Origin: Rozella allomycis CSF55
Taxonomy: Eukaryota
Assembly (NCBI GenBank): GCA_000442015.1
Contig: KE560974.1
Coordinates: 1-35,046, forward strand
Length of the DNA: 35,046 nucleotides
Direction: 5' to 3'
The translations under genes were made by a program, and so were the position numbers. Numbering within the stretch: the stretch's first letter is position 1; the number at the start of each line of letters is the position of its first letter. The notes below the pieces were generated by a model, which worked only from the letters and a program-made list of their open reading frames with translations, was not told the origin of the DNA and did no database searches. Below, piece by piece: positions 16,044-19,000 of the stretch.

Positions 16044-19000
16044 ATGGATTGTAGTTATACGCAACCGACGGAGAGTGTGTTATCGTATTTCCACGTTCGA
16101 GTTGAAGAAGGATTGAGTGAAAAGCAAGTGTTGGAGAATCGTGAGCGATATGGTCGCAACGGTAAGGGCATATACCATTGTGGATAGAATTGGCGCACGA
16201 GGAAGGCACGCCGTTGTGGAAGTTGGTGTTGGAGCAGTTTGAGGATGAGTTGGTGCGTGTGTTGTTGGCAGCAGCAGCCGTGTCGTTTGCAATGGCGATG
16301 GCTGAGGAGGTAATTTTGGGTGTGATTTGTTATTGTAGGTAAGGAGTGTTTTGTGGTGAGATAGGCTGAAGATAGGTTTCATGCGCTTGTAGAGCCGTTT
16401 GTGATATTGCTGATATTGATTTGTAATGCTGTGGTTGGGGTTGTGCAAGAGAGCAATGCTGAAAAGGCGATTGAGGCTTTGAAAAAGTATGCGCCTGATT
16501 CGGCCAAAGTGAGGAGGGGAGGGTTGTTGGAGAAGATTGCTACGGAAGAGTTGGTGCCTGGTGATATTGTGGAGGTGAGTGTTGGCGATAAGATACCAGC
16601 TGATATGAGGATTGTGGAGATTAAGAGTAGTGCATTTAAAGTTGACCAAGCTATTTTGACAGGAGAGAGTGTGAGTGTGCCGAAGGGAGTTGAAGAAGTG
16701 AGAGAGGAGAATGCGGTTATTCAAGAGCAAGTGAATATGATGTTTTCAGGGACGACTGTGACGTTTGGCAAAGCAGTTGGAGTTGTAGTGAAAACTGGGA
16801 TGAATACGTGTATCGGGTGTATCCAGCAGGATATTAGTATGCAGATTAATGAAAAGACTCCGTTGAAGAGAAAGTTGGATGAGTTTGGTGATTCGTTGGC
16901 CAAGGTGATTAGTGTGATTTGTATTTTGGTGTGGGTGATTAATATTGGGCATTTCAATGATGCTGTGCATGGGGGGTTTTTGAAGGGTGCAGTGTATTAT
17001 TTTAAGATTGCAGTTGCGTTGGCAGTTGCTGCTATACCAGAAGGATTAGCGGTAGTGATAACGACGTGTTTAGCGTTGGGAACTAGAGCGATGGCGAAGA
17101 AGAATGCGATTGTGCGTAGTTTGCCTAGTGTGGAGACGTTGGGATGTACCAGTGTGATCTGTAGTGACAAGACAGGAACTCTAACCACTAATCAAATGTG
17201 TGTGACGAGGATGATGATAGTGGATGAAGATGATAAGTTTAAAGAGTATAAGATCAGTGGCACTTCGTATTCAGTGAAGGGAGAGATTGAGGTAGTTGGG
17301 GGAAAGGAAGAGTATAGGATGAATGAAGCGATCAAAGAGATAGCAGAGATATGTACGATGTGTAATGATAGCAGTGTGGTGTATGAAGAGGAGAGTGGGA
17401 TGTATAGGGCTATTGGAGAGCCTACTGAAGCAGCGTTGAGGGTGTTGGTTGAGAAGATTAAGAGTGAGAGTGAAAAGGTGAATGGGAGTGTTTCATTGGA
17501 GGAAGATGAGAATGAAAAGATCAAGATAATGAGAAGTTATTATGAGAATAAGTTTAAGAAGCTAATAACGTTAGATTTTGATAGAGATAGAAAGAGTATG
17601 AGTGTGTTTGTTGAAGAGAAGAAGAAGAAGAAGAAATATATTCTGGTGAAGGGAGCCCCCGAGTCAATATTGGAGCGAAGTAGTTTTTATAGAACAAGAG
17701 ATGGAGAAACTATTAAGATGAGTAGAGAAATGAAGGAGAGGATAATGAACAAGGTGTTTGAGTATGGTGATAAGGAAGCGTTGAGGGTGTTGGCGTTGGG
17801 GTGTGTTGATGAGCCTAGTAGTTTTGAAGATTATGATTTTGAAGATTCAAGCAAGTTTGTAAAGTATGAAACAAGAATAACGTTTGTTGGATTGATTGGG
17901 ATGATGGATCCACCACGACCAGAAGTGAAAGAATCAATTAAAAAGTGTTATTCAGCTGGTATGAGAGATTGATTAGTGTGATGAAGGGATTAGAGTGATT
18001 GTGATTACAGGGGATAATAAGAATACAGCAGAGTCAATTTGTAAACAGATTGGAATAATCAAAGAGAGAGAAGAGAATGTTTGTTATACAGGAAAAGAAT
18101 TTGATTTGATGAGTTTGGAAGAACAAGAAGAGATTATGAAGACTGCGAAATTGTTTAGTAGAACAGAGCCAAGTCACAAGTTGAAAATAGTTGAATTATT
18201 ACAACAAATGGGTCATGTAGTTGCAATGGTAAATTAATAATTTTAATAGAAATAGACTGGGGATGGAGTGAATGATGCACCAGCGTTGAAAAAGGCAGAT
18301 ATTGGAGTGTCAATGGGGTCAGGCACAGATGTAGCAAAGTTGGCTTCTGATATGGTCTTGTCTGATGATAATTTCAGTTCAATTGTTTCTGCTGTTGAAC
18401 AAGGAAGATCAATCTATGCAAACACAAAACAATTCATTCGCTATTTAATCTCTTCTAACATTGGTGAAGTTGTTTCAATCTTTTTAACTGTTTTATTAAG
18501 TCTACCTGAAGCTTTGATTCCTGTTCAACTCTTATGGGTCAATCTAGTCACTGATGGGCTACCAGCAACTGCGCTTGGGTTCAATCCACCAGATCACGAC
18601 ATTATGAAACAACCACCAAGAAATGCAAACGAACCAATTGTAGGCAGATGGCTATTCATCAGATACTGCATCATTGGCTTCTACGTTGGTGTAGCTACTA
18701 TTGCTGGATATGTTTGGCATTATCTATTCAATCCAAATGGTCCTCTCATCTCTTGGTCTGATCTAACAAGCCATCATTCTTGTTCACTATCTTCTGCTGG
18801 ATGTTCAATCTTTCAAGGGTTCCATTCAACCAAAGCATCCACAATGTCTCTATCGGTTCTCGTCACTATTGAAATGTTCAACGCGTTAAACTCTCTCAGT
18901 GAAAATGAATCCCTCTTAACGCTTCCATTCTGGTCAAATCTCTACTTGTTACTGGCAATCTGTCTCTCTATGCTCCTCCACTTTGCTATTCTGTACATCC

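Follow-up and report, generated by a model that had tools for sequence, protein, structure and literature searches.

The window analyzed here is the whole 35,046-nucleotide (nt) stretch of the Rozella allomycis CSF55 genome that covers positions 1 to 35,046 of contig KE560974.1 on the forward strand, with a single N at position 8625. Its gene for a SERCA-type Ca2+-ATPase is interrupted by a 55-nt gap composed of two abutting intron units of 29 and 26 nt, and a second gene of the window, DOP1 (Dopey), has a 53-nt gap of the same build. The removal of all 55 nt (16310-16364) is taken as settled for the messenger RNA (mRNA) product of the SERCA gene, and the tandem build of both gaps is real and not due to chance. 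As judged from the sequence, the predicted units may be removed by two-step recursive splicing through a zero-length exon, a reading to which we give an even chance.

The SERCA Gene and Its 55-nt Gap

The SERCA gene (16044..19146, plus strand) consists of five exons (16044-16161, 16188-16309, 16365-17958, 17987-18228, and 18256-19143) and a stop codon, and it encodes a product of 988 amino acids. In addition to the 55-nt gap, it has introns of 26 nt (intron 1, 16162..16187), 28 nt (intron 3, 17959..17986), and 27 nt (intron 4, 18229..18255), all on the plus strand and all demanded by P0121, the public protein "calcium-transporting ATPase [Rozella allomycis CSF55]", which is also 988 amino acids long. 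A 52-nt intron at 17959-18010 proposed by a gene finder was rejected, because it would delete conserved residues that are present in P0121. The large exon (16365-17960) is approximately 100% identical to P0121, and the runner-up matches reach 53-60%. The five-exon product and P0121 share 986 of the 988 residues, which indicates that the public model takes out the same 55 nt. The two differences, at residues 445 and 458, are possibly of haplotype, isolate, or assembly origin.

P0121 contains the Pfam domains PF00690, PF00122, PF00702, PF13246, and PF00689 together with the phosphorylation motif DKTGT, and it is thus of the P2A type. Its best matches in the PDB are SERCA1 and SERCA2, with 1132-1146 bits over residues 1-979, compared with at most 505 bits for the structures of a bacterial Ca pump, SPCA, and Na,K-ATPase, so that SERCA is the closest family. 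The alignment of P0121 with the solved SERCA1 is free of gaps over residues 1-103, including the M1-M2 loop (E = 0, 1145 bits).

At the borders of the gap, exon 2 ends with GAG GAG at 16309, and exon 3 starts with GCT GAA GAT at 16365. Unit A (16310..16338, plus strand, 29 nt, GTAATT...TTGTAG) is followed immediately by unit B (16339..16364, plus strand, 26 nt, GTAAGG...GATAG). At the internal junction TAG|GTAAG (16336..16343, plus strand), the 3' splice site of the former abuts the 5' splice site of the latter, which leaves an exon of zero length. An earlier sequence-only reading of the window had given these letters and coordinates, 29 + 26 nt joined at AG|GTAAG, and they proved exact when the sequence was read again. 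It had also proposed that the removal of both units makes the M1-M2 loop colinear with that of SERCA without gaps, which is backed by P0121 and by the SERCA1 alignment, and that neither half can be removed alone, which agrees with the reading frames. The removal of unit A alone leads to a stop after six codons, and that of unit B alone leads to a frameshift with a stop. If neither unit is removed, the frame is closed within the gap by the TAA of AGG TAA.

Other gene models at this gap were enumerated permissively by allowing donors of GT or GC, acceptors of AG, and removal in one piece or in two, each at least 15 nt long. Of the 182 open solutions, 11 consist of a single piece, and three of these start with a GTA donor: 16310-16364, with 55 nt, and two of 37 nt, namely 16335-16371 and 16339-16375. 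A gene finder without length restriction treated the 55 nt as one intron, and a gene finder that accepted no intron above 35 nt placed 29 + 20 nt around a 17-nt exon. This latter model and the 37-nt intron 16339-16375 both leave the frame open.

The length of the loop distinguishes these models. A pattern for the segment bounded by the conserved anchors S-F and E-P matched 185 of 240 homologues and left 55 unmatched. In the matched homologues, the segment varies from 13 to 26 residues; 66 of them have 15 residues and 63 have 16, for a total of 129 of the 185, and lengths of 21-23 do not occur. The removal of 55 nt gives a segment of 16 residues in the window protein, whereas the alternative models give 22 residues (37 nt) or 18 residues (29 + 20 nt), and the 37-nt intron 16339-16375 would put six additional hydrophobic residues into the loop. 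The statement of the sequence-only reading that solutions with a 20- or 37-nt intron align worse is therefore upheld: such solutions exist, and they produce a longer, hydrophobic loop that fits less well.

Intron Sizes in the Window

Introns were curated by an open reading frame (ORF)-joining scan, a small gene finder, and the reading of frames, all within the window. The 30 single introns obtained have the consensus GTAA...(T)AG and lengths of 26 nt (seven introns), 27 nt (12), 28 nt (six), 29 nt (four), and 30 nt (one), so that in this window all 30 show the narrow length range below approximately 30 nt that marks ultra-short-intron genomes. For ambiguous acceptors, one variant was chosen, namely at 3870 (26 or 29 nt), 28736 (24 or 27 nt), 15396 (26 or 44 nt), and 7790/7799 (30 or 39 nt). 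Three candidates were kept outside the set of 30. The first, at 6795, could be 20, 29, or 35 nt long; the second, at the 26544/26570 junction (38 or 32 nt), adjoins a reverse-transcriptase ORF and may be no intron; and the third, 29619-29592 (28 nt), was found by eye.

In the homology-checked genes, no junction requires an intron longer than 30 nt besides the SERCA and DOP1 composites. The DOP1 intron 4688-4663 is exactly colinear with Dopey_N, where exon 2 ends at profile position 156 and exon 3 starts at 157. The intron 4538-4513, between exons 3 and 4 of the same gene, straddles a profile gap from 199 to 230 and is supported by the homologue alignment. The junction in a proteasome-subunit gene is colinear with the profile (up to 68 | from 68), and the first junction of the Kae1/TsaD gene is backed by homology. 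The introns of a RING-protein gene (8345-7361, minus strand) are based on frame continuity and on a presumed resemblance to RNF121. A 120-nt intron at 28736-28617 from the gene finder was rejected, as frame reading gives two 27-nt introns there, and its remaining long introns were rejected because they join separate genes. The sequence-only reading had found only two oversize introns in the window, both tandem-built, the second being the gap at 4926-4874 (minus strand) in DOP1, and the curated set agrees with this.

The DOP1 Gene and Its Composite Gap

The DOP1 gene occupies 1..5230 on the minus strand and continues past the left end of the window; it was assigned by the Pfam families Dopey_N, TPR_DOP1_M, and DOP1_C and by homologue alignment. 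Its composite gap consists of unit A (4900..4926, minus strand, 27 nt, GTATGG...AATAG) and unit B (4874..4899, minus strand, 26 nt, GTAATT...GAGAG), which meet at the internal junction TAG|GTAAT (4902-4895, minus strand).

The exon before the composite corresponds to Dopey_N positions 2-94, with the match ending one residue short of the donor, and the exon after it corresponds, beginning with its first residue, to positions 96-156; position 95 is encoded by the split codon. None of 16 fungal Dopey homologues has residues at the 53-nt gap, and the model with all 53 nt removed is free of gaps in a second alignment, which covers 12 of the 16. Pfam colinearity and the agreement of 16/16 homologues show that all 53 nt of the composite are non-coding. 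Since the length of unit A is divisible by three and the unit has no in-frame stop, its removal follows from homology and is not forced by the frame.

The public Rozella DOP1 model, P0243 ("ROZALSC1DRAFT_25138, partial"; 3871-5230, minus strand), cuts merely 20 nt of the 53-nt composite and retains 11 residues (33 nt) that are absent from 16/16 homologues. It also omits the exon 4512-4305, which carries the conserved ...LRKDNSLTRR... of Dopey_N, and it is probably mis-annotated at its tiny introns. A protein search with the large DOP1 exon gave as its only Rozella match the C-terminal fragment P0241, which does not reach the composite; this public model matches the window at 1-2451 with 79-100% identity in pieces, with indels, differences that could likewise stem from another haplotype, isolate, or assembly. 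The other DOP1 introns, all on the minus strand, are 4688-4663, 4538-4513, 4304-4276, 3870-3842, 1329-1302, 1155-1129, 932-905, 316-290, and 205-178.

The base composition of the two genes is unusual. The 5' part of SERCA of approximately 2.2 kb (16050-18300, plus strand) and approximately 1.2 kb of DOP1 (3750-4950, minus strand) show extreme C depletion and G enrichment on the coding strand, with C at 1-11% and G at 24-41% per 150 nt, and the skew affects exons as well as introns. The third codon positions of SERCA exon 3 contain 40% G and 4% C, and those of exon 5 contain 13% G and 23% C; in the other ORFs of the window, G and C are each at 10-18%. Both composite introns sit inside these C-poor, G-rich segments.

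Statistical Assessment of the Tandem Build

The interior of each gap was shuffled 200,000 times, and splits giving two parts of 26-30 nt were considered. AGGTA was found at such a split in a fraction of 0.0080 of the shuffles for SERCA and 0.0041 for DOP1, and TAGGTAA in about 0.0005 for SERCA and for DOP1. When the parts were allowed to be 20-35 nt, the fraction for AGGTA was about 0.03 in each gap's shuffles.

All four units are 26-29 nt long, and the scores of their donors and acceptors fall within the span seen for the 30 curated introns. When ranked against these introns, SERCA unit A has a donor of rank 10 and an acceptor of rank 18, and SERCA unit B has a donor of rank 25 and an acceptor of rank 3. 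DOP1 unit A has a donor of rank 30 and an acceptor of rank 7, and DOP1 unit B has a donor of rank 14 and an acceptor of rank 29, so that in this gene the inner sites outrank the outer ones. No RNA structure that draws the gap ends together was found in either gap (z of −0.29 and −0.17), and no small RNA was found in a composite gap, as the Rfam scan of the window returned only a transfer RNA (tRNA) at 22398-22471.

Two-Step Removal and Its Rivals

In the proposed mechanism, the 55 nt of the SERCA gap would be removed in two successive reactions via the zero-length exon, that is, by recursive splicing, where each unit of 26-30 nt would be recognized singly by intron definition. If unit A were removed first, GAG|GTAAGG would be formed, and the 5' splice site for unit B would stay intact; if unit B were removed first, TTGTAG|GCT would be formed, and the 3' splice site for unit A would stay intact. 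Either order would thus be workable, and the steps would be sequential because two spliceosomes cannot share the AG|GT simultaneously. The underlying reason may be that the spliceosome pairs a 5' splice site with a branch point and a 3' splice site only across about 26-30 nt. We infer two-step removal from the standard length and ends kept by both units, for which a one-step intron gives no reason, and further from the absence of curated single introns longer than 30 nt, the viability of either order, the lack of a shortening RNA structure, and the precedents described below. A sequencing run labelled with the same species was nearly devoid of words of the window; on positions 1-20000, it gave seven records, which were chance pieces of 21-33 nt and contained no joints.

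Several points weigh against two-step removal. At the SERCA gap, the donor of unit A and the acceptor of unit B (ranks 10 and 3) outrank the two sites at the internal junction (ranks 18 and 25), and with such strong outer sites, removal in one step is chemically plausible. The number of composites is two, and for one of them, that in DOP1, the removal of unit A is inferred from homology only, as judged from sequence comparison. The curated set is small (30 introns), and its acceptors were partly chosen, other choices giving a range of 24-44 nt. In addition, the window as a whole shows no enrichment of the bare pattern GTA..AG|GTA..AG, which has three distinct starts there, compared with 2.4 +/- 1.5 expected from 200 block shuffles, so that the signal is conditional: it is the gaps of about twice the normal size needing removal that show the tandem build, and 2/2 of these do. 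The third match of the bare pattern, 4564-4513, is not a viable double, as it closes the frame. Finally, the available portions of PMC5485702 describe Paramecium tetraurelia as having approximately 98% of its introns at 20-30 nt, together with a few introns of approximately 80 nt that hold small nucleolar RNAs (snoRNAs), which indicates that a hard upper length limit is no rule for tiny-intron spliceosomes.

The most serious rival is that the gap is one ordinary 55-nt intron, spliced in a single step from the donor at 16310 to the acceptor at 16364, with the internal TAG|GTAAG as an unused or rarely used relic of its origin, either by the insertion of a second intron at a splice junction or by an old intron duplication. 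We consider this possible but unlikely. It is in line with the higher scores of the SERCA outer sites, with the public annotation, which equals the product of full 55-nt removal, with the single intron called by the unrestricted gene finder, and with the larger single introns reported for another tiny-intron organism in the portions of PMC5485702 cited above. However, none of the 30 curated single introns exceeds 30 nt, and both gaps are about twice the modal length with canonical halves, for which the joint AGGTA shuffle frequency is about 3e-5. In DOP1, no scored site is weaker than the two outer ones. An entirely unused relic would moreover be expected to decay, given that the interiors are unconserved, as seen in the dissimilarity of the halves.

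The composite might instead act as a splicing switch, where full removal yields the pump and the removal of one unit yields a premature-stop transcript that is degraded, tuning expression. The early stops in both partial SERCA products would suit such a function, and the retention of tiny introns in Paramecium is described as coupled to nonsense-mediated decay in the accessible sections of PMC5485702. DOP1 does not fit, since a retained unit A stays in frame there, and any retained intron would act alike, which makes the tandem build superfluous; the switch is accordingly improbable. A different SERCA model, with the single 37-nt intron 16339-16375 or with 29 + 20 nt and a 17-nt exon, is very improbable in view of the loop lengths and the gap-free alignment of the 55-nt product to SERCA1, and neither 37 nt nor 20 nt is represented among the 30 curated introns.

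Two-step removal leads to a wider proposal, that the Rozella spliceosome would pair only sites approximately 26-30 nt apart, that longer gaps would persist as AG|GT-joined standard modules removed serially, and that such chains would be common genome-wide. We hold this proposal tentatively and think it somewhat more likely to fail than to hold. The sequence-only reading had already argued for a general mechanism, and the part of the argument that stands is the same build in two gaps, while its generality rests on two cases in 35 kb. If the proposal is true, two composites per 30 single introns would scale to hundreds genome-wide, and module chains would account for some of the annotation errors in this genome. 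On the practical side, public models of the Rozella genome mishandle tandem tiny introns, P0243 being an example.

Origin of the Composites

The sequence-only reading had named intron duplication, intron insertion at a splice junction, and microexon loss as possible origins. Microexon loss is disfavoured, as both spliced proteins, SERCA and DOP1, are exactly colinear with their homologues. Duplication finds no support when the two halves of each gap are compared: among 561 unit pairs ranked by similarity, the two composites come at ranks 120 and 84. The halves are no more alike than random unit pairs, so that a recent duplication is unsupported, and an old exact intron duplication is speculative. 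Two abutting pairs beside 30 single introns far exceed the expectation of random intron placement. This excess suggests that an intron was acquired at a splice junction already present, or that one was duplicated exactly with the aid of AG/G border microhomology; that the second intron arose in either of these ways is speculation. A metagenome scan with P0121 gave one locus with 34% identity, which is too distant for a comparison of orthologous introns.

Other Features of the Window

The Kae1/TsaD-family gene (PF00814, 6139-7283) and the membrane RING-finger gene (7361-8345), both on the minus strand, are tightly packed and have 4-5 introns of 26-30 nt each. In a gene for an ABCD-type ABC transporter (28425-29244, minus strand), all five introns read are 27 nt long, and all have in-frame stops. 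The tRNA gene at 22398-22471 (plus strand, Rfam, 69.7 bits) lies approximately 1 kb upstream of a reverse-transcriptase ORF (23547-24317, plus strand, PF00078), near which ORFs at 26205-27634 overlap in different frames; this region is possibly a retroelement. From 29900 to 35046, there is no ORF longer than 117 amino acids on either strand and no gene-finder call, and the G+C content of 37-40% is the highest outside the two skewed genes.

Comparison with Known Systems

The intron density of Rozella is given as 2.5 per kb in the available part of PMC8476143, and two introns of approximately 30 nt were remarked on in its S23 gene in that of PMC6349667. In their narrow lengths near 25-27 nt and reduced signals (GTA...AG), the ultra-short-intron genomes of Paramecium, Nyctotherus, Stentor, dicyemids, and myxobolid myxozoans, as covered in the available parts of PMC13644364, PMC5014332, and PMC5485702, resemble the window. 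They differ in that end-to-end tandem units are undescribed in the main text of PMC13644364 and in the available parts of PMC5014332, PMC12862383, and PMC5485702. Rozella is absent from the tiny-intron lineages named in the main text of PMC13644364, and no description of tandem tiny spliceosomal introns was found in the literature searched, a result that is valid for that collection and those search terms. The composites bear on the question of whether tiny-intron lengths are set by a lower limit plus deletion bias or by a true ruler with an upper limit, because end-to-end chains of standard-size introns would mark an upper length limit.

Fungal stwintrons are likewise complex intervening sequences, which according to the accessible text of PMC7138796 are removed by consecutive standard splicing reactions, with one-step versus two-step alternatives in some cases. 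In a stwintron, the external intron has its donor, branch element, or acceptor interrupted by the internal one, whereas the Rozella units lie side by side and are complete, with intact GTA donors and AG acceptors in both units before any excision.

The closest known process is recursive splicing. In the portions of bioRxiv 10.1101/224170 at hand, two introns flanking a zero-nucleotide exon are removed in Drosophila, in mammals, and in one fungal intron, the 375-nt intron of Cryptococcus neoformans BOT1 (210 + 165 nt). As in the Drosophila ratchet points, the vertebrate sites, and BOT1, a 3' splice site is joined straight to a 5' splice site within one annotated intron, and in both SERCA and DOP1, the juxtaposed AG|GT has both sites matching the species consensus. 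Two reactions that leave no remaining exon are a further likeness, which for Rozella is predicted from its sequence alone. The known cases split long introns, of hundreds of nucleotides to many kilobases, whereas the whole SERCA composite is 55 nt and the parts of the composites are 26-29 nt. The Rozella composites would thus be a new variant of recursive splicing, and chains of this kind would extend the process from giant introns to the smallest ones known.

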